Origin: an uncultured Bdellovibrionales bacterium
GTDB lineage: Bacteria > Patescibacteriota > Minisyncoccia > Moranbacterales > UBA9337
Direction: 5' to 3'
Assembly (NCBI GenBank): GCA_964605525.1
Contig: CAZSCV010000001.1
Location: forward strand, 82,424 to 146,423
DNA length: 64,000 bases
Positions 7,080 through 31,918 of the stretch are shown here, in pieces (the first letter of the stretch is position 1; each line of letters begins with the position of its first letter). A model generated the notes under the pieces. That model searched no databases. It saw only the letters and a program-made list of their open reading frames with translations, and was not told the origin of the DNA. A program made the position numbers and the translations under genes.

Positions 7080-7118
7080 ATGTACAGTATAGCACAACGT
7101 AATGTTTGTGTCAATAAT

Positions 7119-7363: not shown

Positions 7364-7463
7364 AAAATTAAAATCTTAATTGAGAGGGCAAGGAAAGCGC
7401 GATGGCTCCCTTGCCCGGGAGAAGTGTTTTTTAACCGGAACGCTTCAAAAAACCATGAGAGAG

Positions 7464-9194: not shown

Positions 9195-10337
9195 ATGAAA
9201 AAAAGGATATTTTCAGGAATACAGCCGAGTGGAAGTTTGCATATTGGGAATTATTTGGGGGCGATCAAGAATTGGGTCGAGCTTCAAAATGAGTATGAGT
9301 CGATTTTTTGCATTGTGGATTTGCACGCAATAACGGTTTTGCAGAATCCGGAATTACTTCGGAAAAGGACTATTGATATCGCTAAGATTTATTTGGCGGC
9401 AGGGATAGACGCGAAAAAATCGGCAATGTTTGTGCAATCGCATGTTCATCAGCACAGTGAATTGGCTTGGATTTTGAATACGATTACGAAAAACTCGGAT
9501 TTAACAAAAATGACACAATTTAAAGATAAAACAAATATTCAATTTGATTTTGAAACCGTGGCTGAAGGCTTAACAGTATTAGAAAAAGATTTTAAAAAAA
9601 ACAAAGAAATAAAGGAGCTGATGAGAAAACATGGATCTTTGGAATTTGCTAAAAAATTAACATCTATAATACAAAAACAATTTAAGGAAAAAACCTTGAT
9701 TCCATTTAATATGGCAAGTGTAGGACTTTTTGATTATCCGGTCCTCATGGCGGCGGATATTTTGTTGTATGATACACAAGTTGTGCCAGTGGGACAAGAT
9801 CAAGTTCAACACATTGAACTTACCAGAACATTAGCGCGAAGATTTAATAAAAGGTTTGGGGATGTGCTTGTTGTTCCTGATTACTTTTTAAAGGAAGAAA
9901 CCAAAATGATTATGGGACTTGATGATCCGACAAAAAAGATGAGTAAATCAGCAAGCTCCGAATACAATTATATTGCGCTTTTGGATGATCCGAAGGTAAT
10001 TGAGAAAAAAATCAAAAAAGCCGTGACCGGAAGCGGAAGCGAGGTGAAATATTCTGATGACGAGCCGGCGTTGAAAAATTTGATCAACATATACAGCGCT
10101 TTTTCCGGAAAATCTGCCAGCGAAATAGTTTCAGAATACAAAGGAAAAGGATATGCCGATTTCAAAGAAGGATTGACAAAAGTAGTTTTGGATTTTATTA
10201 TTCCTTTTCAGGAAAAATTCAAGGCAATTGACGACAAACAAATTTTGGATATTCTTCAAAAAGGCGCTGAAAAAGTTCAGCCATTGGCGAAGAAAAAAAT
10301 CGAGGAGGTAAAGAAAAAGGTCGGTTTCGTTATTTAA
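9195..10337 (+). CDS. trpS: tryptophan--tRNA ligase
   Basis: SGIQPSGSLHIGNYLGAI (HIGH region) and KMSKS; class I Trp-type N-terminus; carries an insertion, 380 aa. Confidence 0.85.
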   Translation: MKKRIFSGIQPSGSLHIGNYLGAIKNWVELQNEYESIFCIVDLHAITVLQNPELLRKRTIDIAKIYLAAGIDAKKSAMFVQSHVHQHSELAWILNTITKNSDLTKMTQFKDKTNIQFDFETVAEGLTVLEKDFKKNKEIKELMRKHGSLEFAKKLTSIIQKQFKEKTLIPFNMASVGLFDYPVLMAADILLYDTQVVPVGQDQVQHIELTRTLARRFNKRFGDVLVVPDYFLKEETKMIMGLDDPTKKMSKSASSEYNYIALLDDPKVIEKKIKKAVTGSGSEVKYSDDEPALKNLINIYSAFSGKSASEIVSEYKGKGYADFKEGLTKVVLDFIIPFQEKFKAIDDKQILDILQKGAEKVQPLAKKKIEEVKKKVGFVI

Positions 10338-17813: not shown

Positions 17814-18839
17814 ATGTCTACACTGGATGATTATAAAATCTATATTCACAGGGAACGTGGCTTTGTCTATCTCCCATTGTTCGCAAACATGAAATCTTCG
17901 GAAGTGCTTGACCTTAGAATTGAAGGCTTTTGTTTCATCCCAAACAAGCAACTAGGAACTGATAAATTTGGGCGAAAAATATCTATCTGTACAGCTGAAG
18001 GAGAAGTTTTTGCTGGCATAAATTTAACAAATGGAAAAGTGTTTTTTGATACGACAATGGGATTGCAAAAAATGCTCAATAAATTAATTGATTCGCTGAC
18101 AAAAGCTGGATACAAAATTAATAATCCAGAGGCTAAGCATGGATATGTTGAAATATGTGCCAGATTCCCACGAGAAATGGTTGGTAAATCCTACGTGTTA
18201 CTTAAAAAAATAAGTATTATATTCCGAACTAAAAAAACCAACACAATCAGAAAAAGGCATGATTCATTGGATTGTGATTGGCTTTATCTCGTCAAGAATA
18301 TTTTATTTGGAAAATACATTGTCAATGTAAAAGTATACCTTGCTGTTAAGTATGCCAAGAACAAATGCGACAACAATCGGATTATTGGATTTGATAATGC
18401 TCGTTTACCAAAAATAGAAGTGCAAATAACAAAACCAAAAAACATACACATTGCTAAAAATGAAGCAATCCCGATTATTATTGCATTTTTAAAAACGCTT
18501 GGTTGTTCAGGCAACGAAATGATTGAGGAAGATTATGAGAAAGTAAGGTTTGCGGAAAAAAATGCAGAAGGTTACCAGCAGATATTTCTTCAATTTAATA
18601 AATTTGAGAACAAGCAAGAAAGAGTTTTTGTAGACAAGAAAAATATCACTGAAAGAGGCATTAAAATTACGCAACTATTATATGAAAAACCACGCAGTGT
18701 AAAGGAAATTAAAAATATACTCAAGGTTAGTGAGAACACTATAAGAATAGAACTAAGCAAGCTAATAAAAGAAAAAATAATTTATTCCAGAGGCCGAAAA
18801 GGAGTGCAAATAATGTATGCGGTTAGATTGCAACCTTAA
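17814..18839 (+). CDS. hypothetical protein with C-terminal winged-helix-like region
   Basis: 341 aa; C-terminal SVKEIKNILKVSENTIRIELSKLIKEKIIYSRGRKG. Confidence 0.4.
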   Translation: MSTLDDYKIYIHRERGFVYLPLFANMKSSEVLDLRIEGFCFIPNKQLGTDKFGRKISICTAEGEVFAGINLTNGKVFFDTTMGLQKMLNKLIDSLTKAGYKINNPEAKHGYVEICARFPREMVGKSYVLLKKISIIFRTKKTNTIRKRHDSLDCDWLYLVKNILFGKYIVNVKVYLAVKYAKNKCDNNRIIGFDNARLPKIEVQITKPKNIHIAKNEAIPIIIAFLKTLGCSGNEMIEEDYEKVRFAEKNAEGYQQIFLQFNKFENKQERVFVDKKNITERGIKITQLLYEKPRSVKEIKNILKVSENTIRIELSKLIKEKIIYSRGRKGVQIMYAVRLQP

Positions 18840-18871
18840 TGGCATAACAGACCCCCATAAAGTTTACCAAG

Positions 18872-19057
18872 ATGATTAGCGAGGAAAAACTGGAAAATTT
18901 GAAAGGTATGACTTCAACCAAGACTAGAAAACGAAGTCAGCCTACGATAAGCTACCAGCTTGCCGAAAATGAAGGCGGGTCGCTTGGTAATGCTTTTGAT
19001 ATTTTGTTTGAAGAAACTTTAAGGCAAAATAATGATTTGACAACTAATGACAATTAG
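18872..19057 (+). CDS. hypothetical small protein
   Basis: 61-aa ORF. Confidence 0.25.
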   Translation: MISEEKLENLKGMTSTKTRKRSQPTISYQLAENEGGSLGNAFDILFEETLRQNNDLTTNDN

Positions 19058-19072
19058 GAATATAATAAATGT

Positions 19073-19242
19073 ATGGAATTTCTCACACTAGAACAAGTAG
19101 CTGAATACTTCGGAGTTCATCCCCGCACCGTGATGCGTTGGCTTAAACAAGGCATACTTAAAGGCTATAAATTGGGCAAAGGCAAAACGGCTTTGCTTCG
19201 TATTCCAAAATCCGAGGTCAAAAAATTTTTAGATAAACATAA
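19073..19242 (+). CDS. excisionase/Xis-like helix-turn-helix DNA-binding protein (56 aa, absent from the ORF track)
   Basis: Hand translation: MEFLTLEQVAEYFGVHPRTVMRWLKQGILKGYKLGKGKTALLRIPKSEVKKFLDKHKIK, a MerR/Xis-type HTH; lies immediately upstream of the serine recombinase. Confidence 0.55.
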
Positions 19243-19248
19243 AATCAA

Positions 19249-20886
19249 ATGAACACTTTAGCAGACAAACAAATAAAACTGATAGCTACTTATGCTCGTG
19301 TATCTGAAAATCCTGATGAAGAGGAGGGAACTATAAAAAATCAGACAATGACTTTTACTGAACTTGCTGAAAAGAATAATTGGCATATAGTGCAAGAATA
19401 TAAGGATGATGATTGGAGTGGCGACATTTTGGAACGACCTGAGCTTGATAGGCTTCGTCTTGATGCAAAAAACAAAAACAGGATTTGGGAAGCCGTGCTT
19501 ATTTATGACCCTAGCCGTTTGGCTCGCAGATATTCTTATCAAGAACTTGTGACAGACGAGTTGATAGAAGCAGGTGTTGAGGTTATTTTTGCTACAGTTC
19601 CAACTCCAAAAAACGCTGAGGATAAAATTTTACACGGCGTTAGAGGATTGTTTGCCGAATATGAAAGGGCAAAGATAACTGAAAGATTTCGTTTAGGCAA
19701 ACTTCGTAAAGCTAAAGAGGGTCATATCCTTACGACCAAACCCTTATATGGCTATAGTTACATTCCGAAAATTGGAAAGATACATGGTTATTATGAAATA
19801 AATCCGGAGGAAGCAAAAACTGTCAAAATGATATTTTCTTGGGTTGCTAATGATGGAATGACCTTGAGAGGTGTGGTAAAAAAATTGCATCAGCTGAATA
19901 TAAAACCCCGTCAAAGCAAAAGAGATGTGTGGAATACTGGCACATTAAGTACAATGCTTCGGCATAAGGCATACATTGGCGAGGCACACTGGGGCAGTTC
20001 TTATGCGGTTGTGCCTGAAAATCCGCTCAAAAACGAGAAATATAAAAAAGTAAAAAAGACCAGTCGCAGAATGAGACCCGAAGAGGAATGGATAATAATT
20101 CCTGTACCAGCAATCATTGAACCAGAGTTATTTGAAAAAGCTGGCAGACAACTCAAAGAAAATTTTAAATTGTGCAATCGAAATAAAAAGAACGAGTATC
20201 TCGTGGCTGGTAAAATTGAATGTGTATGTGGTAGAAAACGAGCTGGTGAAGGATACTACAATAAACCTAATCGTTATTATCGTTGCGAGGATAGAGTATT
20301 GAATTTCCCTTTACCGAAAAAATGCAAAGAAAGAGGTGTCAACGCCAAAATAGCTGACGAACTTGTTTGGGAAAAAATTTCAGGCCTGATGAGTTCTCCA
20401 GAATTATTAGCCGAGCAGGTCAATCGTTGGTTCAAGAATAAACAAAACAAAACGGAATCAGCCTTAGTTGATGTTGAATCCCTAAAAAAAGAAGTTGGAA
20501 AACTGGGCAAACAGGTTGAACGATATAATAAAGGCTATGGAGCAGGAGTATTTACTCTGGAAGAACTCAAGGAATACACCGACCCCCTACGAAATAGTAT
20601 TGGCCAGTTTCAAACGCAAATTTCAAGTGCCACAAGTGAAAGCAATAAAATGAGCTTAGAAACACCAACCAAACAAGACATGGAAGTATTTGCCGAAAAA
20701 GCCAGAAAGACCCTCCAGAACTTGAGTTTTGCTGTTAAGCGTGCAATAATACTGAATACAGTTGAAAAAATAATTGCTTCAAAAGAACATTTACAGGTAA
20801 ATGGTTATTTACCCCTAAATGTCTCATTATGTTATGAAGATAGGAATTGTGGGGTTGCCGAATGTGGGGAAATCAACCCTTTTTAA
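19249..20886 (+). CDS. large serine recombinase (phage-type integrase)
   Basis: N-terminal resolvase domain (YARVSENPDEEEG…, catalytic Ser region), recombinase domain, C-terminal zinc ribbon/coiled coil; 545 aa. Confidence 0.85.
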   Translation: MNTLADKQIKLIATYARVSENPDEEEGTIKNQTMTFTELAEKNNWHIVQEYKDDDWSGDILERPELDRLRLDAKNKNRIWEAVLIYDPSRLARRYSYQELVTDELIEAGVEVIFATVPTPKNAEDKILHGVRGLFAEYERAKITERFRLGKLRKAKEGHILTTKPLYGYSYIPKIGKIHGYYEINPEEAKTVKMIFSWVANDGMTLRGVVKKLHQLNIKPRQSKRDVWNTGTLSTMLRHKAYIGEAHWGSSYAVVPENPLKNEKYKKVKKTSRRMRPEEEWIIIPVPAIIEPELFEKAGRQLKENFKLCNRNKKNEYLVAGKIECVCGRKRAGEGYYNKPNRYYRCEDRVLNFPLPKKCKERGVNAKIADELVWEKISGLMSSPELLAEQVNRWFKNKQNKTESALVDVESLKKEVGKLGKQVERYNKGYGAGVFTLEELKEYTDPLRNSIGQFQTQISSATSESNKMSLETPTKQDMEVFAEKARKTLQNLSFAVKRAIILNTVEKIIASKEHLQVNGYLPLNVSLCYEDRNCGVAECGEINPF

Positions 20887-21889
20887 GGCATTAACGAAAA
20901 ATCCGGTGGATATAAACAACTATCCTTTTTGCACGATCGAGCCGAATATTGGAATCGTCAAGGTTCCGGATGAGCGTCTTTTGAAGTTGTCCGAAATGTC
21001 GCAAACGGAAAAAATAGTGCCGGCGATTGTGGAATTTGTGGATATCGCCGGGATTGTTAAGGGCGCTTCGGAAGGTGAGGGATTGGGGAATAAATTTTTG
21101 GCGAATATCCGTGAAGTGGATGCCATCGCCCAGGTGGTCCGCGTTTTTGAAAACGGAAACATCACACATGTGCACAATAGAATCGATCCCTTGGACGACA
21201 TAGAGGTTATAAACACCGAGCTCATTCTGGCTGATATCGAAACGGTGGTGAAAACTGAGGCGAGAATCGAGAAAGAGGCGAAGGGAAATAAGAAGGGCGC
21301 GGACAAACAGCTTGAAGTCATCAGGCAAATAAAGGTGGCATTGGAAAATGGAAAACTTGCCAATGAAACGGATGGTTTGGACGAATCAATGAAAGATGAA
21401 AATTGCAGGATAATCATCCGTGAAATGTCATTGCTTACCATGAAGCCGTTTTTGTACGTCTATAACGTGGCGGATATCGAGCGGAAATTGCCTGACGAGT
21501 TGGAAAAAAGAAAACATGTGAAGCTGGATGTGAAGATAGAAGAGGAGCTTATCGAGATGAGTACGGAGGAAAAAGATGAAATGGGATTGGTTTCCCATAT
21601 CGATGATTTGGTCGTAGTCGCATATGACCTGCTCGGATTGCAGACGTTTTTGACAACCGGAAAAATTGAAACCCGCGCTTGGACAATCAAGAAAGGCGCC
21701 ACCGCTCCCGAAGCCGGGGCGGCGATTCACACGGATTTTCAAGAAAGGTTTATCCGTGCAGATATCATCAATTGGAAAAAACTTTTGGAAATCGGCTCTT
21801 GGGGAAAAGCCAAGGAACTCGGCGCAGTCAAAACCGTCGGCAAAGACTATATTATGCAAGACGGGGACGTGGTGGAGTTTAAGGTGTAA
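20834..21889 (+). CDS. ychF: ribosome-binding ATPase YchF
   Basis: MKIGIVGLPNVGKSTLFKALT (P-loop), NYPFCTIEPN, C-terminal TGS domain; start at MKIG (ORF track 20819). Confidence 0.9.
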   Translation: MKIGIVGLPNVGKSTLFKALTKNPVDINNYPFCTIEPNIGIVKVPDERLLKLSEMSQTEKIVPAIVEFVDIAGIVKGASEGEGLGNKFLANIREVDAIAQVVRVFENGNITHVHNRIDPLDDIEVINTELILADIETVVKTEARIEKEAKGNKKGADKQLEVIRQIKVALENGKLANETDGLDESMKDENCRIIIREMSLLTMKPFLYVYNVADIERKLPDELEKRKHVKLDVKIEEELIEMSTEEKDEMGLVSHIDDLVVVAYDLLGLQTFLTTGKIETRAWTIKKGATAPEAGAAIHTDFQERFIRADIINWKKLLEIGSWGKAKELGAVKTVGKDYIMQDGDVVEFKV

Positions 21890-22000
21890 ACAAACTTTTT
21901 CGGAAAACCTAGTGCGTAAGGCTTGATATAGTAGGAATGGCTTGCATGATTCCAAAAAATATGATAAAATGGAATTACTAATTCCATAATCATAATAAAT

Positions 22001-23149
22001 ATGTATACTAGAATTTACAAGCCGAATAAAGACTTGAATCAAAGTTTTTTCTTGTTTGGTCCGCGTGGAACGGGAAAAACCACGTGGCTGAAGGCTAATT
22101 TTCCCAAAGCGGTTTATTTGGATTTGCTGGAATCTAAATTAAACAGAATATTGATGGCTTCGCCTGAAAAATTGGAAAATTATATTCCAAGTGGCTATTT
22201 TGGTTGGATTATTATTGACGAAGTGCAAAAAATTCCCGCCCTTTTGAATGAAGTCCATCGTTTGATTGAAAGCAAGAAGTATAAGTTCATATTAACCGGA
22301 TCAAGCGCGCGAAGCTTGCGAAAAAAAGGAGTGGATTTGCTGGCGGGGCGGGCGCTGACATATTATTTTCATCCACTAGTCAGAAAAGAGTTGGGAGAAA
22401 AATTTTCACTTTTATATTCATTGAAATATGGACAATTGCCGATGGCATATAATTCTTCAAATCCGGAAAAATTCCTGGATTCATATGTGCAGACTTATTT
22501 GCAAGAAGAAATTTTGCAAGAGGGTTTGACTCGTAATATCGGCAATTTTACCAGATTTTTGGAAATAGCTTCTTTTTCACAAGGACAGGTTTTGAATATT
22601 TCTCAAATTGCCCAGGAAACTCAGTTGGAAAGAAAAACAGTGGAAAATTATTTTGGAATTTTAGAAGATTTGTTGATAGGTTTGCGCCTGCCGGTTTTTA
22701 ACAAGCGCGCAAAAAGGAAGTTGATTGCTCACAGTAAATTCTATTTTTTTGACACTGGAGTGTTTCGATCGCTCCGTCCAACCGGTCCGCTTGATAGCGA
22801 GGCGGAAATTGACGGACCGGCTATTGAAACTCTTTTTTTGCAGGAAATACGGTCACTTAATGATTATTTGGAATTGAATTATGAAATTTTTTATTGGCGC
22901 TCGATAACAGGAGTGGAAGTTGACTTTGTGTTATATGGCGCGAAGGGCTTGTTGGCTTTTGAAATCAAGCGAAAAGCAAATATTAATAACAATGACTTGA
23001 AGGGATTGAAAGCTTTCAAGAAAGATTATCCGGAAGCGAGGTGTTTTTTGTTTTGTTCTACGGATAAGCAGGAATATCGCGGAGATATTACTATAATGCC
23101 GATTGAAAAAGCCTTGGATGATATGGATAAAATCTTGCAGGGAAAGTAA
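22001..23149 (+). CDS. AAA-family ATPase with DUF4143 domain
   Basis: FLFGPRGTGKTTWLK Walker A; architecture typical of AAA_14/DUF4143 proteins. Confidence 0.7.
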   Translation: MYTRIYKPNKDLNQSFFLFGPRGTGKTTWLKANFPKAVYLDLLESKLNRILMASPEKLENYIPSGYFGWIIIDEVQKIPALLNEVHRLIESKKYKFILTGSSARSLRKKGVDLLAGRALTYYFHPLVRKELGEKFSLLYSLKYGQLPMAYNSSNPEKFLDSYVQTYLQEEILQEGLTRNIGNFTRFLEIASFSQGQVLNISQIAQETQLERKTVENYFGILEDLLIGLRLPVFNKRAKRKLIAHSKFYFFDTGVFRSLRPTGPLDSEAEIDGPAIETLFLQEIRSLNDYLELNYEIFYWRSITGVEVDFVLYGAKGLLAFEIKRKANINNNDLKGLKAFKKDYPEARCFLFCSTDKQEYRGDITIMPIEKALDDMDKILQGK

Positions 23150-23335: not shown

Positions 23336-23364
23336 TTGACAAAACTTTGTTGATATGCTATACT
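23336..23364 (+). promoter_or_regulatory. near-consensus sigma70-type promoter (TTGACA, 17 nt, TATACT)
   Basis: ttgacaaaactttgttgatatgctatact. Confidence 0.5.
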
Positions 23365-23456
23365 CCAAAGTCAAATCAAAAAAGTAGGTTGAAAACTGAA
23401 TAGTGTTTATGAACAATGTTTGGAGAGAGGCATTGCAAATAAAATACCTAAAAAGG

Positions 23457-23514
23457 CATTAAATTGCGTGTTTTTCTCAAAATCAGTGAAAACAGCCAAT
23501 TTAATGCTTTTTTT
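23457..23514 (+). terminator. Long hairpin (11-bp stem) plus T7, about 95 nt downstream of the promoter
   Basis: GCATTAAATTG…31 nt…CAATTTAATGCttttttt. Confidence 0.45.
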
Positions 23515-23764
23515 GTTAATTTAGTGAAAATCGTGAAGAAGAGAGAGACTTTAATTTGTTTCCTATGCCAGTATATATGTATTGTTGGATAATAATTGAT
23601 TTTTGATCCGATTCAATCAATATACCGCTCATCTTCACAATTTTCTCCGAATTATCTAATTTTGGAGAAAAAGAAGCTCTTCGTAATAAACATATTAAAT
23701 TCCTGATTGCCGTGGTGGCGGTTGGGAGAAAAATTAGTCTCGGAAACGAGAAAAGGAGGACGTT

Positions 23765-24154
23765 ATGAGTATGAGTGAGGGAAGGTTTTGGAGTGAATTG
23801 GAGCGGTCTAATGACCGTGAAAAAATGGCTCAAATCGAGCATCACAACAAAATCGTTGCGAAACTGCTTGTTTCGCAAAACCCACACGATCGTTTGTGTG
23901 GAATCGTGGGGGCAGCATTGCCTCCGTTAGGGGAGGATTTTTTCCTAAATCATGAGTTGGGCCCGAGCTATCGGGCAGGACAGATCGTCGAGGCTTATCG
24001 TCTTTCTCCTGGGGAGACAATGATGGTCGGCCGATATGTGGTAACGGCGGGTCGTTTTTGCACTACTGGGCATTTTGCCCACGAGTGCGGAGGATATTTG
24101 TCTATTGCCCCTGAGGCAAAAGACAACCCGCCAAGAATGCATAAAGTTAAGTAG
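23765..24154 (+). CDS. hypothetical protein (cassette ORF1, GC-richer than surroundings)
   Basis: AGGAGG RBS 6 nt upstream; 129 aa; no known motif. Confidence 0.5.
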   Translation: MSMSEGRFWSELERSNDREKMAQIEHHNKIVAKLLVSQNPHDRLCGIVGAALPPLGEDFFLNHELGPSYRAGQIVEAYRLSPGETMMVGRYVVTAGRFCTTGHFAHECGGYLSIAPEAKDNPPRMHKVK

Positions 24155-24278
24155 TTTTGTTTGGCGAAACTCATAAAGTTTCAGTGAGTTTCGCCCTATT
24201 ATTGAAATTTTGATTTGCAATGATTTGAAAATTGAAGTTTCATGGTAGAAAAAAGTTCTTTACAATAAAATATTTCCT

Positions 24279-24332
24279 ATCCAACACTCAGTTTTTTCCG
24301 CCAGTGGGCGAATTGAAGATTGGGTGTTGGAT
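24279..24332 (+). repeat. integron attC-like inverted repeat (ATCCAAC … GTTGGAT) with nested GC hairpin
   Basis: ATCCAACactcag-tttttCCGCCagtGGGCGaattgaagatt-gggtGTTGGAT; ends match the RYYYAAC/GTTRRRY consensus. Confidence 0.45.
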
Positions 24333-24421
24333 TTGGAAGAAATATATTAAAATCCTGACTGCCATGGTGGCGGTTGGGAAAAATTTTATGCTTTGTCGAG
24401 AGATGGGGCGAGGAGGTATTT

Positions 24422-24691
24422 ATGAATTTTTTTAAAAAAAGTAAGGCAGAAACTTCTGACGAAAAGTTTGTCCGTCTTCTTCGGGAGGCGGTAGGGAACA
24501 CACAGCTGTGGGTTCCCGGTATCGGGAACGGAGGAATGAAGGGCGTTTTGAACGCCCTGAGTTCTCTGAATGATTCGGAAATCATCCGGATTATTCGAGA
24601 GTCAACCTGCGGAATCGACTGTGCAGGTTGCGAGGACTTCCGACCTATTCCTGGAGGCGGAGGCGATCATTTTTGTTGTCGCGGGATGTAA
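24422..24691 (+). CDS. hypothetical Cys-rich small protein (cassette ORF2)
   Basis: GAGGAGG RBS; 89 aa ending CGIDCAGCEDF…HFCCRGM. Confidence 0.45.
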   Translation: MNFFKKSKAETSDEKFVRLLREAVGNTQLWVPGIGNGGMKGVLNALSSLNDSEIIRIIRESTCGIDCAGCEDFRPIPGGGGDHFCCRGM

Positions 24692-24988
24692 TTTTTTAAA
24701 TTTAAATGAGTGGCCTAGTTAATCTAGGTGCGTCGCCAGGATCTTAACCCTGACCGAAAGGAGGGGATACAACGGACGTAAGGCCGTTTTCGGCGGCAAA
24801 ATAGGCGGTAAGACCCGAGAAAAATTTCATCGGGCAAAGGATCTGCCTTGAGAAGAAAGTGATTCAGCCGGTCCACTCCGGCAAAGTTCAAAAGGGCAAG
24901 GTCAGTTCAAAACTTGCCCCTTCAATAGAGTTTATAATATTGCAAAATATAAATTCTTAGAAGAAAAAGTTCTTTACAACATTTTCCT

Positions 24989-25044
24989 ATCCAACACTCA
25001 GTTTTTGCCCGCCTCTTTGGCGGATTGAGGATTGAGTGTTGGAT
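24989..25044 (+). repeat. integron attC-like inverted repeat (ATCCAACACTCAG … GAGTGTTGGAT, perfect 11-bp arms) with nested GC hairpin
   Basis: ATCCAACACTCAGtttttGCCCGCCtctttGGCGGattgaggattGAGTGTTGGAT. Confidence 0.5.
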
Positions 25045-25127
25045 TGGGAAAATCCAATATAACCCTGGATTAATTCCGGAAACTCAACTCAACGCCTTAA
25101 ATAAAGAGGCAACGAAAGGAGGCAGTT

Positions 25128-25595
25128 ATGGCAGAATACATTTTTTCAGCAGACGGTCGTTTTTTTGAGTTGTATCATGTAAAAAAAGAGGTTGCTGAAC
25201 AATCTATTTTCGGTATCCCTTATATTTTTCATGATGAATCCGACAATCGTCGGACCCAGGCAATTAATTGTCCGGGAAATTGGAGAATAAAAGAGCGTAT
25301 GTGCCATAGCGGTGACTACGATGCTGTCGATAAGACAGGGGAGTTGCGTTCTCTGAAAGAGTTCGGTTCGTTTTACAAGACATTCCCTGAACCTCTTCGG
25401 TTCTCTTCTTGGGCTGAGTATGATCATGCCCAGGAAAAAAAGAGAATGGAAAAATTAGAGGAGGAGAATGGGAAACTCCTCCAAAAAATAAAAAAAATGA
25501 CTGAGGCATTAGAAGAGATTGCCTTAATCAATAACAAAGGAGGTCCAGGGTCGCGGAGATTGGTCCGGGAGCTAGTTGATTCTTCCTTAAGATAA
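25128..25595 (+). CDS. hypothetical protein with C-terminal coiled coil (cassette ORF3)
   Basis: AAGGAGG RBS; 155 aa. Confidence 0.5.
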   Translation: MAEYIFSADGRFFELYHVKKEVAEQSIFGIPYIFHDESDNRRTQAINCPGNWRIKERMCHSGDYDAVDKTGELRSLKEFGSFYKTFPEPLRFSSWAEYDHAQEKKRMEKLEEENGKLLQKIKKMTEALEEIALINNKGGPGSRRLVRELVDSSLR

Positions 25596-25757
25596 ATTCT
25601 CACCTCCGCACAGGTGATACAAAGTTAGCTCTTTATTCGAAAAGTTCAAAGTTCAAGCGATGCGGCGCTTGAACTCTATTATTGAAACCTTGATTTCTAA
25701 TGATTTGAAAATCGAAGTTTCATTGTAGGAAAAGTTCTTTACAATAAAACATTTCCT

Positions 25758-25811
25758 ATCCAACGCTTAGTTTTTCCCGCCAGCGGGCGGATTGAAGATT
25801 GAGTGTTGGAT
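25758..25811 (+). repeat. integron attC-like inverted repeat with nested GC hairpin CCCGCCagcGGGCGG
   Basis: ATCCAACgcttagtttttCCCGCCagcGGGCGGattgaagattgagtGTTGGAT. Confidence 0.45.
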
Positions 25812-26201
25812 TGGGAGATGTCAATAAAGCTCAGTTGCCGTGGTGGTGGTCGAGAGAAAATTTATGCCTTGTTGAGAGATGAGGCGGGGAGATTAAAATG
25901 AACGTAAAAGATTATGAAAAAAGTCTCGAGAAAAATGCAGTAACATTTTCATTTTTCGAGTTAGCCACCCTCCTTGGAGAGTCTGGCTATACAAAGTTTC
26001 AGTGAGTCCTCCTACCTATTATTAAGATGTTAATTTTGTAAAAAATTGAAATCTTATAGTAGAGGTTCTTTGAGAAAAAAATAATTTGTTAATGTTGTGG
26101 TTTGTTTGATCAGGAAAGTAAATCGGCTAATTTTTCGGGGGTGGTCTCGGGAAATAGTCAAAATTAAAAAAGCTCCACTACAAAAGGAGCGAGGAGGAAC
26201 A

Positions 26202-26498
26202 ATGTTAAAAATCGACCTGAGTTTGAAAAATGCACCCCTGTATCATGGTTGCGAAATCGGCGAGGTCGGAGGGCGCGACACTCTCCTGACCGAACCCGTC
26301 GAGGCCAGCAATATCGTCGGGCGCAACGCCATAGCGATGATTGAGGCTACTCCCGCCGACCAGCGAGATGTGGTCGAGCTCACTGGCCCGATGGCCGTGT
26401 GGGCATACCTGGTGGTTTTCCACCAGGTCGTCCACAAATTCCGCCAGGTCGTCTATGACGACGGGCGAGGCGGGCGGGTAATAGTGGCTCAGCACTAA
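26202..26498 (+). CDS. hypothetical protein, markedly GC-rich (cassette ORF5)
   Basis: AGGAGCGAGGAGG RBS; 98 aa; by eye well above the GC of flanking DNA. Confidence 0.4.
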   Translation: MLKIDLSLKNAPLYHGCEIGEVGGRDTLLTEPVEASNIVGRNAIAMIEATPADQRDVVELTGPMAVWAYLVVFHQVVHKFRQVVYDDGRGGRVIVAQH

Positions 26499-26707
26499 CG
26501 AGTCACAAAGGTTTCTGGAGGGATGCCTAACAACAAAATCCTTCCACTGTTCACGGCGAAGCTCACAAAGTTTCAGTGAGTTTCGCCCTATTATTGAAAT
26601 CTTAAGCGAAAGTTTGAGGTTTTATAGTGGAAGTTCTTTAAAAGAAATGAAATATAAAAATGAGTGCCCTTGCTCTTAATGGCTGGTGTAAAAACTAGCA
26701 AGTGCCG

Positions 26708-29700
26708 ATGGCGCGCGAGCAGACAAGGGTTTTCGAGAAATCGGAAAGCTTGCTCGTGGAGAAGATAATGGAAGAGAAAAAATTCAGTCGTGTTATCGTT
26801 GTTGCTCCAACTCGGAGCACCTGCCTAAACATTTCTATGGTGCTGTCCAACGGTGCTATCCCTCAGACTCTGCTTATGCGGGAAAAGAGGAAGGAGATTT
26901 TTGAGGCGGTGGATTGTTTAGAGCTGGGAGGTTTCGGCGTTGTTGCCGGAACAGGTACTGGTAAAACCGTCGCAATTCGCGACATTGCTAATCGAGTGCT
27001 TGGCGAAAATCTAAGTGTGGATGTCATTACTCGTGAACATGAGGCGACAGATCGCACTTGGCAGTGCAACACCTTGGTTGTAACACCAGGGGTTGCGTTG
27101 AATTGGTTTAAGTCGCATATCCTAAGTTCGGAAGATTTGCTGGTTTTCGATGAGATTCATCAGACTAGCGAGCATTTGGAGCTTACACTGGCGTTGGCCA
27201 AACGAGTTAGCTGTACATTCATTTGGATGTCAGCCACGATTGACCCATCGTTGTATTCTGATTATTTGGGAGCGGCGACGGTGATTGAGTGTTCGGCATT
27301 TGATCCGTCCAAGCGGGCGGAAGTTGAGTGTCGGCGAGATAACCCCGAGGATTTTTTTAGCGATGAGCGTCTCGATGATTTTATCGCCGGAGAACGAGCA
27401 GTTGCCGTTTTTGTTCCGACTAGGGCGATGGCAGAAAAGTTGTCGCGAGAGTATGGAAAAAAAGATGGACTCTACTGCTGCGATTTCTATCACGGTGGGG
27501 AGAAGGCTGAAAAACTTCGCCAATTTCTGAAGGGAGATGTTCCCAAACCGTTTATGGTTTTTATGACTATCGCTGGGGCATCATCTCTTAATATTCTCGG
27601 TTTGGACACGGTGGTTATCGCGGACGAGATGTATAAGGGAGTTGTTCATTCGGGTGTTTCCGTTTTGGAAAAAATCCGACTGGGCAACAATGAGTTGCTT
27701 CAGATGGGCGGACGAGTCAATGGACGAATGGAGAATTCGCGAGTGTATATTTTAACTTCGCGAGAGATTGATTTTCATTCGCTTCAGCCGATGGTTCCCG
27801 AGTTTGTGCTCGGCGGAGATCTTCGGCGAGTAGCATTAACTTGTGCTAAGCTGGGGGTTAATGCCAGCGATCTTGATTTGATTTCCAAAATTGAGACCAC
27901 AGTTTACAACACTGAAGTTCAGCGTTTCCGTAATCGTGGAATCATTGAGGTGGAGAGCGAAAGCTTGACGCCTTATGGAAAGAAAGTTGAGCGTCTGCCA
28001 GTAGACCCTGGCTGGGCGGAGTTGATAGTTAACGCTGAGCAAGTTGGTGACGAGATGTTAAATGTCGTCGCGACTTGTTCGTGTGCCGAGTCTCTCTACT
28101 TAATTCTTCGAAAATTTCCGAAACTTGAGGGGTTGGGTGTTAGCGGCAGTGATCATCTTACTGCTTATAACATCGTTGTTTCAGCTCTACGACAATTTGG
28201 ATTTGTCCAGAAGTCGAATGGCGGAACAGAGTATGGTTTTCGAGGCGACTGGGTCAAGAAGCATTTTGACAAAAAAATCGGTCAGTCCGAAAAATCAATG
28301 GGTGAGTTTGCCCAATGGTGCGATTTTATGGGTTTTAACAGCAAAGCAATCAAGGAGGTTGCAATCGCAATGAAATCCGTGTTTCGCCAGTTGGGTCAGA
28401 GTTTGCCCGATCCGATGGAGATGCAAGTAGTTAGTAATAACGACCATTTACATCTAGGTTTTATTGGTTTATTGGCACGTGTTCAGTCGCTGGATTTCGT
28501 TCACGATCAACAAAATTCCAAAGCCATGTCGGCTTACGGAACTGTTTGGTCCGCGCAAACTTCCATGACGCAAGCGCGCCGAGTTCTCGGCAAGATTCGT
28601 TATTGGACGGATAAGCGCGGGACTCGGAGAGCGACAATTGAGGGGACTGAGATTCCTGAAGATTTGGTCCCTCGGTATGGGCAAAAAACACCCCAGTGCG
28701 TGACGCGAGTCACAAACGAAGGTGTCGAAATCCAATATAGGCTGAGTTTTGCCGAAGAGGATTTGGGAACCAAGAATATCGTTGTTTCTGACGATGAGGT
28801 TCCTGAGGGTTTGCTGGGGCAGGCTGAAATGAAGTTTGTTGAAGCTTTTGCAAACAAACAACTCTCGGGGGTTGAGGTGGTTGTTGATAAAAACACTGAT
28901 GCTCGCAAGGAACACAACCACCTCTGGATTCGTTCTGGGGGAAGTTACAAGCGAGCTACTCTTGAGGATGAGCGAGAGGGGTATGCTAACGAAATCCTTG
29001 GGAAGGGGATTATTTCGGCTCAGTCTTTTGAGCAGGCACTTCGCAACGGCAGTGTCGATGCGAAGAATTTGCTTCTTGTTTCTGTTTCTGACAGCGAGCG
29101 AGAGTGGTTTGAGCGGGAAAATCCTGAGAGTATTGAGGTCGATGGTAAAAATTGTCTTGTTGAGTATGGGCAGATTTACCACGATACCTTTTTTGCTCGT
29201 GTTCGTTTTGAGAAAGAGTTTCTATTCTCAACTCAGATAAAAGAGGTTTTTTTACCATCAGGTCGGCAACTTGAGATCGCTTGCTCGGGTTGGTACGCGA
29301 TGACGGTTTCCGAGCTTGTCGCTAAACTATTGACCTCTGACTGCTCGGAAGAACTTCGGGTTCCGCAGACGGAACCATGGCAGAAGAAGACGGGGTACTG
29401 GGGTTGGTCTCTGACCGATCTCGGCAAGCAACTGAAGTCGGGGCTTGAGAAGCTCATTTGCGAGCATGCAGAAAAACCCAAAGCCGATGGAATGGCTGGA
29501 CGGATTGAAGCGCTTAAACAGGCGGTTGCCCTTCTCTATAAGGAATTGGCGGGACAGCAGGAAATTGTTGCGCGCAAAATATCCGAAACAGAAACCGAAC
29601 TTTTTGGCTTGATTGCCGAGGTGGCGGATTCCGGATTGGATTATTCCTTGCGTCGGCAGGTTTCCGATGGTGTCGAGAAAGCTCACAAGAGCGAGTATGG

Positions 29701-30181
29701 TGCCATTGACGAAATTTGTAAAACCTTGACCGAGATCGTTAAGAACGAGATTAATTCTTGGCGGGAACGGGAGGAAGAAAGGAGAAAGCAGTCAGAAGCT
29801 GACCGAGAGTGGGCAATATCGCAAAATCTGCCCGAATCATTGGTTAGCGAGGTTGTTGAGAGAGGCGATTTCTCGGCTCTGAAAAAATTCATTCAGAATG
29901 TTGACACGCTAAATGCAGTCGATCTCGACGAGCACACTTGCTTGGGTTGTGGACGAGACCGTCGTCGAAGCCATCTAGAAGAAATTTCAGGCTTGGATAG
30001 TTACGACTTTTTTCAGGGCTTTGACCCAAATGATGTCACTGTCTGGATCTGGAATCGGTTAGAAGGCAAACGACCGAAAATTTCTGCCGGAAAACCAAAA
30101 GAGAAGCGGCCAGTGGCTTCTAGCAAAGGTGAGTTTTCTAATAATCCTTTTGCCGCTCTTGCCAATTTGAAAGTTCGTTAA
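26708..30181 (+). CDS. DEAH-box (HrpA/DHX-like) ATP-dependent helicase with long C-terminal extension
   Basis: Motif I GTGTGKT, motif II DEIH, motif III SAT, motif VI QMGGRVNGR; downstream LPVDPGWAELIV and GSDHLTAYNIV match the winged-helix/HA2 region of DEAH/RHA helicases; 1157 aa; GC-richer than the genome. Confidence 0.85.
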   Translation: MAREQTRVFEKSESLLVEKIMEEKKFSRVIVVAPTRSTCLNISMVLSNGAIPQTLLMREKRKEIFEAVDCLELGGFGVVAGTGTGKTVAIRDIANRVLGENLSVDVITREHEATDRTWQCNTLVVTPGVALNWFKSHILSSEDLLVFDEIHQTSEHLELTLALAKRVSCTFIWMSATIDPSLYSDYLGAATVIECSAFDPSKRAEVECRRDNPEDFFSDERLDDFIAGERAVAVFVPTRAMAEKLSREYGKKDGLYCCDFYHGGEKAEKLRQFLKGDVPKPFMVFMTIAGASSLNILGLDTVVIADEMYKGVVHSGVSVLEKIRLGNNELLQMGGRVNGRMENSRVYILTSREIDFHSLQPMVPEFVLGGDLRRVALTCAKLGVNASDLDLISKIETTVYNTEVQRFRNRGIIEVESESLTPYGKKVERLPVDPGWAELIVNAEQVGDEMLNVVATCSCAESLYLILRKFPKLEGLGVSGSDHLTAYNIVVSALRQFGFVQKSNGGTEYGFRGDWVKKHFDKKIGQSEKSMGEFAQWCDFMGFNSKAIKEVAIAMKSVFRQLGQSLPDPMEMQVVSNNDHLHLGFIGLLARVQSLDFVHDQQNSKAMSAYGTVWSAQTSMTQARRVLGKIRYWTDKRGTRRATIEGTEIPEDLVPRYGQKTPQCVTRVTNEGVEIQYRLSFAEEDLGTKNIVVSDDEVPEGLLGQAEMKFVEAFANKQLSGVEVVVDKNTDARKEHNHLWIRSGGSYKRATLEDEREGYANEILGKGIISAQSFEQALRNGSVDAKNLLLVSVSDSEREWFERENPESIEVDGKNCLVEYGQIYHDTFFARVRFEKEFLFSTQIKEVFLPSGRQLEIACSGWYAMTVSELVAKLLTSDCSEELRVPQTEPWQKKTGYWGWSLTDLGKQLKSGLEKLICEHAEKPKADGMAGRIEALKQAVALLYKELAGQQEIVARKISETETELFGLIAEVADSGLDYSLRRQVSDGVEKAHKSEYGAIDEICKTLTEIVKNEINSWREREEERRKQSEADREWAISQNLPESLVSEVVERGDFSALKKFIQNVDTLNAVDLDEHTCLGCGRDRRRSHLEEISGLDSYDFFQGFDPNDVTVWIWNRLEGKRPKISAGKPKEKRPVASSKGEFSNNPFAALANLKVR

Positions 30182-30351
30182 AATTCTTACCCCCGTACGG
30201 GTGATACAAATTTAGTTCTTTGTTTAAAAGTTCAAAACTGTGGTTCGAAATTGTGCGGAATTTCGGACCCTATTATTGAAACCTTGATTTCCGATTATTT
30301 GAAAATCGAAGTTTCATTGTAGAAAAAGTTCTTTGAAATAAAACATTTCCT

Positions 30352-30397
30352 ATCCAACGCTTAGTTTTTAAGTTTTTTTGAAAATTGGGTGTTGGAT
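30352..30397 (+). repeat. integron attC-like inverted repeat (nested hairpin replaced by T-rich spacer)
   Basis: ATCCAACgcttagtttttaagtttttttgaaaattgggtGTTGGAT. Confidence 0.4.
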
Positions 30398-30485
30398 TGG
30401 GAAAATATATCAAAGTTCTGACTGCCATGGTGGCGGTTGGGAGAAAAATTTGAGCCCTGTCGAGAGATGGGGCGAGGAGGAGAAA

Positions 30486-31532
30486 ATGGAGATGGAAATG
30501 TATGCAATCATTTTATGTGGAGGATCGGGAACGAGGCTTTGGCCGCTCAGCCGGGAAAAAACTCCGAAGCAATTTTTGAGCTTGTACAGTAAAATGTCCC
30601 TTCTGCAGGAAACTTTTTTGCGGATGCGGGAAATAATGCCGGCAGAGAATATTTTTTTCAGCACTTACGGAAAAGTGTCTGCCGAAAAGGTGTTTGAGCA
30701 AATAGTGCAGGTGGGAAAAAATATTGACAGGCGACAAATCATTCTTGAGCCGAAAAAACTCAATACTGCCCCGGCTATTGCTGCCGCTGTTCGTTACTTG
30801 AGACGGAAAATAAAGATAGACGACGCTCCAATCATTGCTACTCCCTCAGATTATTATATTGGCGATAAAGAGGAGTATTTAAGGGTGGTAAAAATGGCCG
30901 CGGAAAACGTGGGTGATAATATTGGAACTATTGGCATTGTTCCAACGGGACCGGAAACCGGGTATGGATATATAAAGAAGGGGAAAAAAGAAGGAGAGTA
31001 TTTTTATGCTGCGGAATTTAAAGAAAAACCTGATAAAAATACCGCATTAAAATATGTTCAGTCCGGCGAGTATGTTTGGAATTCTGGAATGTATATCTTC
31101 AATATCGGAACATTTTTCAATGAGTTGGAGAAATATGCTCCGGAAATTTACAAAGCGACTAAAATTGAAAAAAGCGAAGATTTTTCAATTGAATTCCAGA
31201 AACTTCCGTCGATTTCAATTGATTATACTATTTCAGAAAAATCCGACAAAGTTATCGTCTTTGAGGGCGAATTCGGCTGGAGCGATATTGGATCCTTCGA
31301 TAGCCTGTCAGAAATTTTGGCAGGAAATCAAAACAAAAATCGACGACATGTTGTCGTCGGCGGGGAGAACGTTTTCATTCACAGTAGTACCCAAGGGAAG
31401 ATTATTGCGGTGGTAGGAGTGAGTGATCTGATTGTGGTTGAAGCTGGCGATGCAATTTTGATCGCCAGAAAAGGCCACAGTGAGGATGTAAAGACCGTTG
31501 TGGAATTTTTGAAAAAGGAGAATATCTATTAA
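30486..31532 (+). CDS. manC: mannose-1-phosphate guanylyltransferase
   Basis: MYAIILCGGSGTRLWPLSREKTPKQF N-terminal nucleotidyltransferase signature; GAGGAGG RBS; start at MEMEMYAI (ORF track 30378). Confidence 0.8.
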   Translation: MEMEMYAIILCGGSGTRLWPLSREKTPKQFLSLYSKMSLLQETFLRMREIMPAENIFFSTYGKVSAEKVFEQIVQVGKNIDRRQIILEPKKLNTAPAIAAAVRYLRRKIKIDDAPIIATPSDYYIGDKEEYLRVVKMAAENVGDNIGTIGIVPTGPETGYGYIKKGKKEGEYFYAAEFKEKPDKNTALKYVQSGEYVWNSGMYIFNIGTFFNELEKYAPEIYKATKIEKSEDFSIEFQKLPSISIDYTISEKSDKVIVFEGEFGWSDIGSFDSLSEILAGNQNKNRRHVVVGGENVFIHSSTQGKIIAVVGVSDLIVVEAGDAILIARKGHSEDVKTVVEFLKKENIY

Positions 31533-31918
31533 GCGAAGATATTCTCACCTCCGCACGGGTGATACAAATTTAGTTCCTTGTTTAAAAGTTTAAAAACTGT
31601 GGTTCGAAATTGTGCGGAATTTCGGACCCTATTATTGAAACTTTGATTTCCAATGATTTGAAAATCGAAGTTTCATTGTAGGAGTTTTTTTTAAAATCAA
31701 TAAAGTTTCGCAAAGTGGGAAAAAGCGAAGATTTTTTCAGATCTCTCTCCTGAAATATTTTTTCTTTCCGCTAAATGCTTTGCGAAACTTTGTTGATTTT
31801 TTGTTTTTCTTTTTCTTTATGGTATAATTTTAACAATAAGAAAAAATATTTTTTTAAAAAATTGCACCTTTCTGTTTAATTGTGAGAAGTAAGAAAATAA
31901 ACAAAAATAAAAAATCAA

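Follow-up and report, generated by a model that had tools for sequence, protein, structure and literature searches.

In the early operon of phage T7, strong promoters drive a polycistronic region whose mutually similar intercistronic hairpins are cut by RNase III, leaving stabilising hairpins on the products. In the genomes of T4-type phages, PeSL cassettes unite strong promoters with terminator stem-loops around ORFan genes, occupy hyperplastic regions and recombine with one another (PMC2839356, PMC4122927). Integron cassette arrays are instead defined by attC sites, whose features are R boxes, extrahelical bases, an unpaired central spacer, a variable terminal structure and selectivity for the bottom strand (PMC5027507). 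Here we describe an 8.4-kb chromosomal locus that shares some features with each of these systems. It lies in a 64-kb stretch of contig CAZSCV010000001.1 (hereafter the window) from an uncultured bacterium of the lineage Moranbacterales, and comprises seven co-oriented open reading frames (ORFs) at 23.66-31.69 kb that alternate with a module of approximately 270-300 bp (array coordinates are positions within the window). An earlier note on this DNA had read the locus as an integron-like array. We propose, with moderate confidence, that it is a tandem series of standardised RNA-level expression and processing cassettes, which also provide homology for the exchange of cargo genes.

Comparison with the T7 operon reveals a similar general plan, in which a promoter-driven array carries long and similar hairpins between its cistrons. 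RNase III acts on double-stranded RNA of at least approximately 20 bp between cistrons, and the largest hairpin of the module, called C below, forms 25-31 bp on the plus strand of an array that is bracketed by a single promoter and a terminator. However, the window hairpins are near-perfect and lack the internal loops typical of the T7 sites, each junction carries five more hairpins, and cleavage of the window transcript is a prediction.

The resemblance to PeSL cassettes is of a different kind. Both are repeated intergenic stem-loop regulatory cassettes around ORFan genes, and in both cases related genomes hold different genes between the same cassettes, since the window and a related array on contig L011 share modules but no cargo. 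For PeSLs, as for the module described here, homologous recombination between cassettes is the proposed route of shuffling. PeSLs, however, are short elements of phage genomes with a clear sigma-70 early promoter, whereas the window module is approximately 300 bp in length, forms six hairpins, lacks a recognisable sigma-70 promoter and is found on a chromosome from the candidate phyla radiation. No phage matches to the locus were found. The locus belongs not with the integrons but, and only loosely, with the PeSL-type systems, from which it is set apart by the lack of a clear promoter, by its non-phage location and by its far larger multi-hairpin unit.

A six-hairpin module recurs between unrelated genes

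Direct-repeat searches, MAFFT alignment and an nhmmer profile made from the full copies, three in number, gave the same layout of module copies (Table 1). Together with a covariance model of the B part, which adds a match among the degenerate copies, these methods place the copies where the earlier note had reported them. The note's account of unrelated genes, some of foreign appearance, that are arranged like cassettes behind a consensus promoter with a conserved repeat between them also holds. Diagnostic 16- and 22-mers are restricted to the array within the window (8 occurrences versus 0.8 expected, and 4 versus 0.03 expected, respectively). Similarly, the sequence GTTCTTTRNAA is present six times in the window compared with approximately one expected occurrence, and five of the six reside inside the array. 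The sole trace of the module elsewhere in the window is a weak partial B-like copy on the minus strand (7322-7391, 39.9 bits, E 5e-6).

A full module forms six plus-strand hairpins in fixed order. The first (A1) is a small hairpin located after the stop codon, in which a C-G pair in one copy is swapped for a U-A pair in another. The second (A2) is a perfect hairpin of 10-12 bp that occurs with four unrelated stem sequences, yet its end always abuts CUAUUAUUG. The third (B) is bulged and has CUAU/GUAG as its closing stem; the single-stranded sequence AAAAAGUUCUUUACAAUAAAAC separates it from hairpin C. The lower stem of C (25-31 bp in total) is formed by ATCCAAC and GTTGGAT, and its tip is a nested hairpin. 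This tip had been described as a variable GC hairpin, which is correct for most copies, but the copy preceding manC carries an AT-rich tip. The 3′ part of the module comprises P2 (12 bp, UGG loop), P3 (8 bp, GAGA loop), the Shine-Dalgarno (SD) sequence GAGGAGG and the ATG start codon. The P3 stems differ among copies, whereas the GNRA loop is constant.

Segments of the module are conserved to different extents. Segment B is the most conserved (85-98% identity between any two copies), A is variable, and C occurs in two types. Segment D, which extends from hairpin C to the start codon and includes P2, P3 and the SD, is 67-91% identical among typical copies and approximately 50% identical for variant w2. 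Homology between copies reaches approximately 130 nt upstream and approximately 90 nt downstream of hairpin C, up to the next SD.

The terminal copies define the boundaries within the module. The half module downstream of manC stops exactly at the foot of B (...TTGTAGGAG), and the copies preceding ORF1 and on contig L010 start at an AAAAAG(TT)CTTT motif, which places the unit boundary at ...TTGTAG|AAAAAGTTCTTT. These end points argue that the natural units are a 3′ untranslated region (UTR) unit and a 5′-UTR unit for each gene. The 3′-UTR unit comprises A1, A2 (terminator-like, with a variable sequence) and B (bulged and covarying). The 5′-UTR unit (GUUCUUU-C-P2-P3-SD) consists of the single-stranded motif AAAAAGUUCUUUACAAU, hairpin C, P2, the GNRA-loop hairpin P3 and a strong SD. 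The 5′-UTR unit of ORF1 has no hairpin C, but retains TTGGAGAAAAAG..TAATAAAC, P2, a P3 with a GAAA loop and the SD.

Two other readings of the module were considered and rejected. A recombinase core of the form TTGTAGA-8-TTTACAA was dropped because the gap between TAG and GTTCTTT ranges from 1 to 8 nt across copies and because the second arm is lost in several of them. A conserved peptide encoded by the module was ruled out because every frame is broken by insertions or deletions. Rfam scans of the window at gathering thresholds returned only tRNAs, with no family matching the module; under permissive settings, the array and one module scanned alone yielded chance-level matches only, and scans of related loci likewise produced no family for the module.

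Table 1. Features of the array in the window, and hammerhead ribozymes of the sister arrays
Feature	Position	Strand	Details
Consensus sigma-70 promoter	23336-23364	+	TTGACA-17-TATACT with TG; scan 11/12, extended -10
Leader	23365-23659	+	long hairpin 23440-23523 (inverted repeat I1); fold z -3.5 and -4.0; motif AAGAGAGAGAC ~23541-23552
ORF1 5′-UTR unit	23660-23764	+	direct repeats D5/D7; nhmmer 23688-23741; fold
Cargo ORF1	23765-24154	+	129 aa; near-orphan
Full module w1	24155-24421	+	A2 24163-24195; B 24196-24248; GTTCTTTACAA 24255-24265; C 24274-24338; P2 24353-24379; P3 24390-24409; then SD; nhmmer 24151-24418
Cargo ORF2	24422-24691	+	89 aa; Cys-rich C-terminus; family not found
Spacer and variant module w2	24692-25127	+	partial module ~24914-25127; variant B 24914-24984; C 24981-25053; divergent D; nhmmer 24939-25068
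Cargo ORF3	25128-25595	+	155 aa; orphan
Full module w3	25596-25897	+	A1 25600-25617; A2 25650-25675; B 25676-25728; GTTCTTTACAA 25734-25744; C 25749-25821; P2; P3; SD; nhmmer 25596-25895
Remnant ORF	25898-26005	+	35 aa; 3′ end enters A-type hairpin (...ACAAAGTTTCAGTGAG); gene call in public assemblies
Degenerate module	26006-26201	+	diverged B 26010-26085 (covariance model R1, 65 bits, E ~4e-12); GTTCTTTGAG; no hairpin C
Cargo ORF5	26202-26498	+	98 aa; Csx3-like
Degenerate half module and helicase leader	26499-26767	+	decayed module 26499-26660; hairpin 26516-26546; A2 26555-26587; diverged B 26582-26653; nhmmer 26554-26647
DEAH-box HrpA/HrpB-like helicase (ORF6)	26768-30181	+	1137 aa
Full module w4	30182-30485	+	A1 30187-30204; A2 30242-30269; B 30270-30322; GTTCTTTGAAA 30328-30338; AT-tip C 30346-30404; P2; P3; SD; nhmmer 30183-30483
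manC (mannose-1-phosphate guanylyltransferase)	30486-31532	+	Pfam
Terminal 3′-UTR unit	31533-31685	+	A1 31545-31562; A2 31601-31628; B 31629-31681; homology ends right past B (...TTGTAGGAG); nhmmer 31541-31691
Putative array terminator	31693-31825	+	108-nt hairpin then U-rich run
Type III hammerheads	L012 6913-6967; L012 13505-13559; L013 5992-6046		RF00008

The hairpins are predicted to form in RNA of the coding strand

Hairpin C is predicted to fold better as RNA from the plus strand (-30.5 to -43.5 kcal/mol, z -7 to -8.9) than from the minus strand (-11 to -35 kcal/mol). As single-stranded DNA (ssDNA) it folds weakly on both strands (-6 to -18 kcal/mol). Among nine copies, pairing is observed in 94.9% of pair cells on the plus strand versus 70.4% on the minus strand. 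G·U pairs make up 27% of the cells, and thus only the coding strand folds well. Substitutions in the hairpin are transitions between G·U and A·U or G·C pairs, which retain pairing on the plus strand only, and the minus strand is left with symmetric C·A mismatches or large internal loops. When the register of pairing is shifted, the paired fraction falls to 56% or less.

Hairpin B is supported by covariation. In nine copies aligned by MAFFT, pairing is complete (100%) and four pairs carry two-sided changes, which was equalled in only 3 of 500 shuffles; the covariation score was matched in none of the 500. When a covariance model was used to find and align 14 copies, compensatory changes appeared in 13 of 20 pairs and 98.8% of cells were paired (0 of 500 shuffles), although this alignment is fitted to the model. 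Compensatory changes are also present in the diverged B of the degenerate module that precedes ORF5. Hairpin B and its GUUCUUU tail form an RNA motif with covariation support, which is absent from Rfam and apparently undescribed.

The repeat resembles an attC site in its boxes and tip only

The earlier note had likened hairpin C to an attC site, based on an imperfect inverted repeat whose outer boxes match the consensus RYYYAAC/GTTRRRY. That inverted repeat (ATCCAAC...GTTGGAT) is present in four copies, all of the repeats are co-oriented with the ORFs, and the tip is variable. If the locus were an integron-type array, hairpin C would be folded from the bottom strand and recombined at G|TTGGAT, and the locus would represent either a cluster of attC sites lacking an integron-integrase (CALIN) or a sedentary array with a distant IntI. 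Other features shared with such arrays are co-oriented, unrelated and largely orphan genes behind a strong promoter, and, as in CALINs, no integrase is encoded nearby. In agreement with the note, no tyrosine recombinase was seen in the window: within these 64 kb, the part of the genome that was searched, we detected no domain of the Phage_integrase type among ORFs of at least 150 aa.

However, the pair of boxes has no discriminating value. Shuffled windows contain on average 14.5 such pairs at attC spacing, compared with eight in the window, which correspond to four sites counted on both strands. Among the attC features listed above, hairpin C exhibits only the R-box consensus and the variable tip. 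Extrahelical bases and an unpaired central spacer are absent. The plus strand forms one continuous stem. When the bottom strand was folded, as the note had suggested, no bulged bases appeared and the structure was less stable, whereas it is the bottom strand that serves as the substrate of IntI. The distance from box to box (46-56 nt) is at or under the range of attC sites.

The boundaries of homology likewise argue against recombination at an attC core. Hairpin C is embedded in a conserved block of approximately 300 bp within the 5′ leader of the next gene, and the homology breaks at ORF edges and at TTGTAG|AAAAAGTTCTTT rather than at G|TTGGAT. The hairpin is missing after the last cassette, where manC is followed by A and B only, and from three of the seven junctions (before ORF1, ORF5 and ORF6). 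A lone GTTGGAT at 23584, which had been proposed to mark an attI-like site, is a chance match. The window contains 14 copies of this heptamer versus 9.75 expected, eight of which are module arms; the copy at 23584 is one of the six others and lies approximately 95 nt away from the homologous position relative to P2. Given these structural, strand and boundary data, we consider it highly improbable that the locus is an integron or CALIN. In the literature collection that was searched, no paper linked integrons or hammerhead ribozymes to Parcubacteria or to the candidate phyla radiation.

A strand-specific hairpin would also suit cassettes that move as top-strand ssDNA, carried by a single-strand transposase or recombinase (IS200/IS605- or HUH-like) encoded elsewhere. 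In such an arrangement, C would lie approximately 20 nt inside the left end, B would form the right end, and TAG|AAAAAGTTCTTT would be the junction. The terminal copies do break consistently at the foot of B and approximately 20 nt before C, and conservation is higher in the module than in the gene next to it. However, folding as ssDNA is weak, since G·T would account for one in four pairs, the gap between TAG and GTTCTTT is variable, the window encodes no Y1 or HUH transposase, and neither dispersed copies nor target duplications were seen. We therefore regard this mode of movement as very unlikely.

Module-bearing arrays in other assemblies

Identical loci with the same order of genes and modules are present in independent public assemblies (L014, L017-19 and L027-29), and thus the array is not an assembly artefact. 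A search for a strict 24-mer of hairpin C returned no viral contigs, none of 185,579 species genomes, and two metagenome contigs (L010 and L011), both from one metagenome of the Joint Genome Institute. A relaxed two-arm pattern for hairpin C also had no matches in the 185,579 representative genomes or in viral contigs. Patterns for the B segment and for the flank of the L012 hammerhead (see below) each failed to match any viral contig, and blastn comparison of the module with phage and plasmid collections gave no match. A degenerate P2 pattern produced nine single viral matches, which were dismissed as chance because no other module part was present.

Contig L011 carries a perfect TTGACA promoter (~558-590) and a leader, followed by six ORFs and five module copies, four of which are well kept and one decayed. 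Its ORFs are unrelated to the genes of the window and to one another. The modules of the two arrays are 80-88% identical over their whole length (blastn), with values of 88-98% for segment B and 89-96% for hairpins C of the same type. For example, L011 2801-3099 matches window 30182-30474 with 88% identity over 299 nt, and the flanking genes differ on both sides. Window 24866-25049 is 84% identical to L011 1222-1409.

Contig L010 preserves a promoter with a perfect TTGACA (~5634), a leader and a 5′-UTR unit in front of a manC gene whose product is only 55% identical to that of the window. The module and leader are 84% identical between the two, compared with 60% for the adjoining manC codons and 29% for their third positions. 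By this comparison, the module appears to be better conserved than the neighbouring protein-coding sequence.

These distributions also bear on whether the module is an ordinary dispersed intergenic repeat (of the REP/BIME, BOX, Correia or miniature inverted-repeat transposable element type) that is clustered by chance. Like repetitive extragenic palindromes with their interspersed mosaic elements (REP/BIME) and BOX elements, the module is a mosaic of intergenic hairpin sub-elements with likely effects on mRNA stability, and one partial B-like copy is present outside the array. Those repeats, however, are spread genome-wide in both orientations, whereas all full copies in the 64 kb reside in a single co-oriented array, where their order and their orientation with respect to the genes are constant. 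Furthermore, terminal inverted repeats and target duplications are absent, and the module was found neither on contig L025 of the same metagenome-assembled genome (MAG) nor in the representative genomes searched. An origin as a dispersed repeat therefore has very little probability in our estimation.

Sister arrays carry a hammerhead ribozyme in place of hairpin B

The two closest homologues of the array helicase (67% identity) are encoded in arrays on contigs L012 and L013, where the module sequence is unrelated but the order of parts is the same. A perfect consensus promoter (in L012, a perfect TTGACA at ~6647-6680) is followed by a leader with AGAGAGAG, a terminator-like hairpin, a type III hammerhead, AGTTCTTTACAAT, a hairpin of 130 nt (-52 kcal/mol, z -9.5), several smaller ones and an SD. 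A motif of the form TAGR...GTTCTTTR is repeated ahead of the internal small ORFs of these arrays. The hammerheads (Rfam RF00008; Table 1) score 42.7-47.5 bits against a gathering threshold of 48.5, with E values of 1e-7 to 2e-6. In L012, hammerheads together with a 127-nt repeat of 100% identity (6982-7108 and 13649-13775) are found at both ends of a 6.6-kb block of five genes, including that of the helicase homologue.

In the sister arrays, a hammerhead resides between a terminator-like hairpin and the GTTCTTTACAAT motif, which is the position of B in the window. The presence of a self-cleaving RNA at the position equivalent to B argues for RNA processing, and is the strongest hint that the junctions serve this function. 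Hammerhead ribozymes are known from intergenic regions of bacteria and phages, and those of L012 and L013 occupy such a place. Unlike a hammerhead, however, window B is a simple bulged hairpin with no recognisable catalytic core and no match to any Rfam ribozyme.

Inspection by eye revealed a leader motif, AAGAGAGAG(A/C)C, that is common to the window (~23541-23552), L011 (~645-660) and L012 (~6720-6735). The helicase genes have a conserved leader of their own (..CAAGTGCC..GGCGCGCGAG..GAAAGCTTGCTCGTG..), also noted by eye, at window 26660-26767, L012 ~9800-9935 and L013 ~2290-2425. Its sequence is distinct from the array module, which suggests that it may be a separate cis-element.

A model for expression and exchange of the cassettes

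The array is bracketed by the consensus promoter and by a hairpin formed from inverted repeat I4 (96% complementary, -40.6 kcal/mol, z -5.8), which with its U-run is likely the terminator for the entire array. No conserved sigma-70 promoter was detected inside the modules by scanning. This combination favours one transcript that is cut at each junction. In the model that we favour, a single long RNA would extend from the promoter at 23336 to the terminator at 31693-31825, and the modules would act in that RNA on intercistronic processing, stability and translation. Two sites of cleavage, used singly or together, are proposed: the GUUCUUU linker, which is rich in A and U, and hairpin C, whose long duplex would be a suitable substrate for RNase III. 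After cleavage, hairpins A2 and B would shield the upstream message at its 3′ end, and C, P2, P3 together with the strong SD would both shield and present the 5′ end of the message that follows.

The same module, recurring five to seven times with a length of approximately 300 bp, could also offer homology for the gain, loss and swapping of genes between arrays and between genomes. Homologous recombination at the modules would account for several features of the locus, including the different cargo found between the same modules, the truncated ORF that is fused to a module (25898-26005), the decayed older modules that lie beside near-identical ones, and the greater conservation of the module relative to the adjacent gene. 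We infer read-through, cleavage, stabilisation and recombinational exchange from computed folds, from the covariation of B and from matches to promoter and terminator models.

The main rival explanation is that each gene forms its own transcription unit, bounded by composite terminator-promoter cassettes similar to the PeSLs of T4-type phages. A2, with or without B, would terminate the upstream transcript, and GTTCTTTACAAT with the upstream TAGA would serve as a promoter for the host polymerase or for a dedicated factor. Hairpin C would be a 5′-terminal stabiliser of primary transcripts, and cassette recombination would shuffle the ORFans. This arrangement would make sense of the -10-like sequence TACAAT/TATAAT in GTTCTTTACAAT, which precedes C by approximately 7-12 nt in most well-kept copies, is also present in L012 and L013, and belongs to a motif that is specific to the arrays. 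However, the -10-like sequence is not accompanied by a -35 match at 16-18 bp, a promoter scan passes over the motif, and no sigma-70 consensus is conserved. The -10 itself is lost before manC (TGAAAT), ORF5 and ORF6. Moreover, B is located upstream of the putative internal promoter, and its covariation as a hairpin argues that B itself is transcribed. The locus is also chromosomal and lacks any phage signal. We consider this explanation less probable than the processing model, though a serious alternative to it. In addition, promoters of the sigma-70, sigma-54, extracytoplasmic function (ECF) or extended -10 type within B were evaluated by eye and by scan, and none fit.

Several observations weigh against the model of a processed and exchangeable transcript. 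The A2 hairpins with CUAUUAUUG score as terminator-like, which would oppose read-through and favours separate transcription units, as does the -10-like sequence ahead of hairpin C. Covariation in C, P2 and P3 does not exceed the shuffle control: their changes are one-sided and involve G·U pairs, and the two compensatory pairs observed were reached by 147 of 500 shuffles. Support for these three hairpins is thermodynamic and strand-asymmetric only. With regard to exchange, the strain comparison that the earlier note had recommended revealed identical gene order in four assemblies of the population, with no ongoing shuffling, and look-ups of exact proteins (helicase, manC and ORF3) recovered identical copies of the locus only, with no differences in presence or absence. 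Module-bearing contigs elsewhere in the collections searched number only two. Finally, the conservation of the module between the window and the hosts of L010 and L011 could stem from strong purifying selection instead of transfer.

A bolder version of our model is that the locus represents an undescribed, dedicated gene-cassette platform of the candidate phyla radiation, in which orphan genes inserted between standard 5′- and 3′-UTR units, and stacked behind a consensus promoter, are exchanged between genomes unit by unit, with the TAG|AAAAAGTTCTTT boundary next to B. We regard this as doubtful. The hammerhead at the corresponding boundary of the sister lineages nevertheless leaves room for B and the GUUCUUU linker to be a new self-cleaving or nuclease-guiding RNA motif, and for cassettes to travel by way of RNA or of a single-stranded intermediate instead of being exchanged by ordinary homologous recombination.

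Cargo genes are mostly orphans

All-vs-all BLASTP comparison of the small ORFs confirms that the cargo genes are mutually unrelated. Cargo is mostly orphan and some of it is of foreign composition. The report that the cargo is richer in GC than the host is accurate for ORF1, ORF2, ORF5 and ORF6 (0.47-0.58, with 0.49 for ORF1, versus 0.374 outside the array), but ORF3 and manC (0.41) fall inside the host range of 0.35-0.45. The composition of ORF5 is the most clearly foreign, with a GC content of 0.58, and 0.70 at third codon positions, in a genome of 0.37.

ORF1 has no match in Pfam, PHROGs, PADLOC or NCBIfam, and only three relatives among 1.8 billion representative proteins. The sole database match to ORF3 is the same protein in Parcubacteria group bacterium Athens0714_25 (GCA_007376775.1), the MAG to which we assign the locus. 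ORF5 matches Csx3 in PADLOC (E 3.4e-7) and shows weak similarity to the Csx3 structures 6yud and 6vjg. This Csx3-like gene (Csx3 is a CARF-type ring nuclease) is positioned directly upstream of the DEAH helicase gene. Beyond the Csx3-like ORF5 and the HrpA/B-like helicase, searches of PHROGs, PADLOC, Pfam and NCBIfam suggested no function for the other cargo, and ten small ORFs scanned from L011-L013 likewise matched no Pfam family. By a rough count, cysteine makes up approximately 1.9% of the small cargo proteins of the window, L011, L012 and L013, versus 0.76% of host proteins in the window, an enrichment of approximately 2.5-fold. Several of the cargo proteins, such as ORF2 and that encoded at L011 1494-2000, have C-terminal cysteine clusters.

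The helicase belongs, distantly, to the HrpA/HrpB type of DEAH proteins, with a Pfam DEAD domain and low-scoring NCBIfam matches to HrpB and HrpA. Its start had been placed at 26708, but more likely lies at 26768, where the 1137-aa gene called publicly as P0001 begins. Patescibacteria commonly encode homologues, and those with 67% identity occupy the analogous arrays described above. Use of the helicase as a marker of such arrays is only partly valid, because more distant homologues are stand-alone chromosomal genes. One contig with such a stand-alone homologue (L015, from a distant member of the Patescibacteria) also carries a LOOT RNA (21873-21990, Rfam RF03000, 79.5 bits) close to genes for a rolling-circle Rep protein and for a large serine recombinase (18577-20211); the recombinase gene adjoins a tRNA gene, approximately 6 kb from the helicase homologue.

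The manC gene lies inside the array and is trailed by a half module. A second manC of the MAG, on L025, resides in the context UvrA-UvrC-UvrA-x-manC-GyrB that is common to other Moranbacteria (L020-L024). Because this other copy is already in a conserved native context, the array manC is an extra copy and thus cargo. Its relatives carry Moranbacteria names. For the same reason, the module is not the native leader of manC, given that the genes of other Moranbacteria and the second manC of the MAG lie in a tight operon without it. The L025 gene (6001-6927) is called at 308 aa, and a fragment encoding the C-terminal beta-helix is located on the opposite strand (7284-7452) at the contig end, which may mean that the native copy is disrupted or that the assembly is at fault.

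Genomic setting of the array

The chromosomal surroundings are ordinary, and include gyrA, aminoacyl-tRNA synthetase genes, type IV pilus genes and ychF. YchF and DUF4143 genes flank the array on one side, and HisK and type IV pilus genes on the other. A large serine recombinase with Resolvase and Recombinase domains is encoded 2.9 kb upstream of the array (19249-20886, plus strand), overlapping the start of ychF. Its best NCBIfam match is CcrB/CcrC-like and far under the cutoff, and the genes for YchF and the DUF4143 ATPase stand between it and the array. A stretch of low GC content at 14-19 kb beside the recombinase gene may be an integrated element. The DUF4143 AAA ATPase gene, directly upstream of the array (22001-23149, plus strand), corresponds to the PADLOC candidate PDC-S01 (E 1e-53). 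Farther from the array is another defence-type gene, for an AbiEii toxin (5752-6492, minus strand).

Between ORF2 and variant module w2, there is a GC-rich (~50%) non-coding stretch of approximately 190 nt (24692-24880, plus strand), which has no Rfam match, no counterpart in L011 and only a modest fold signal (z -2.5). A second, smaller array of two genes is present on the minus strand. It begins with a promoter (TTGACA-17-TATACT, ~8003-7975), which is followed by a Cys-rich ORF of approximately 131 aa (~7862-7465), a GC hairpin, the B-like hairpin noted above together with GTTCTTTCAAT, and an ORF for a membrane-like protein of 47 aa (7312-7169).

Implications

Our analyses remove a false positive: the attC core consensus is matched exactly and the array has the look of an integron, yet it proved not to be one. 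The features that expose it, namely strand-specific G·U pairing, missing extrahelical bases and wrong boundaries of homology, can be reused elsewhere. What is unusual about the locus is that unrelated orphan genes on the chromosome of an ultra-small and poorly understood lineage all carry one and the same RNA casing of six hairpins, which is shared, at 80-97% identity, with an unrelated metagenome and encloses different genes there. The hammerheads of the sister arrays provide a concrete link to RNA cleavage. If the module is indeed both a processing and stability element and a handle for recombination, it would represent a bacterial-chromosome counterpart of the phage PeSLs, and would offer these symbionts a route to sampling new genes.

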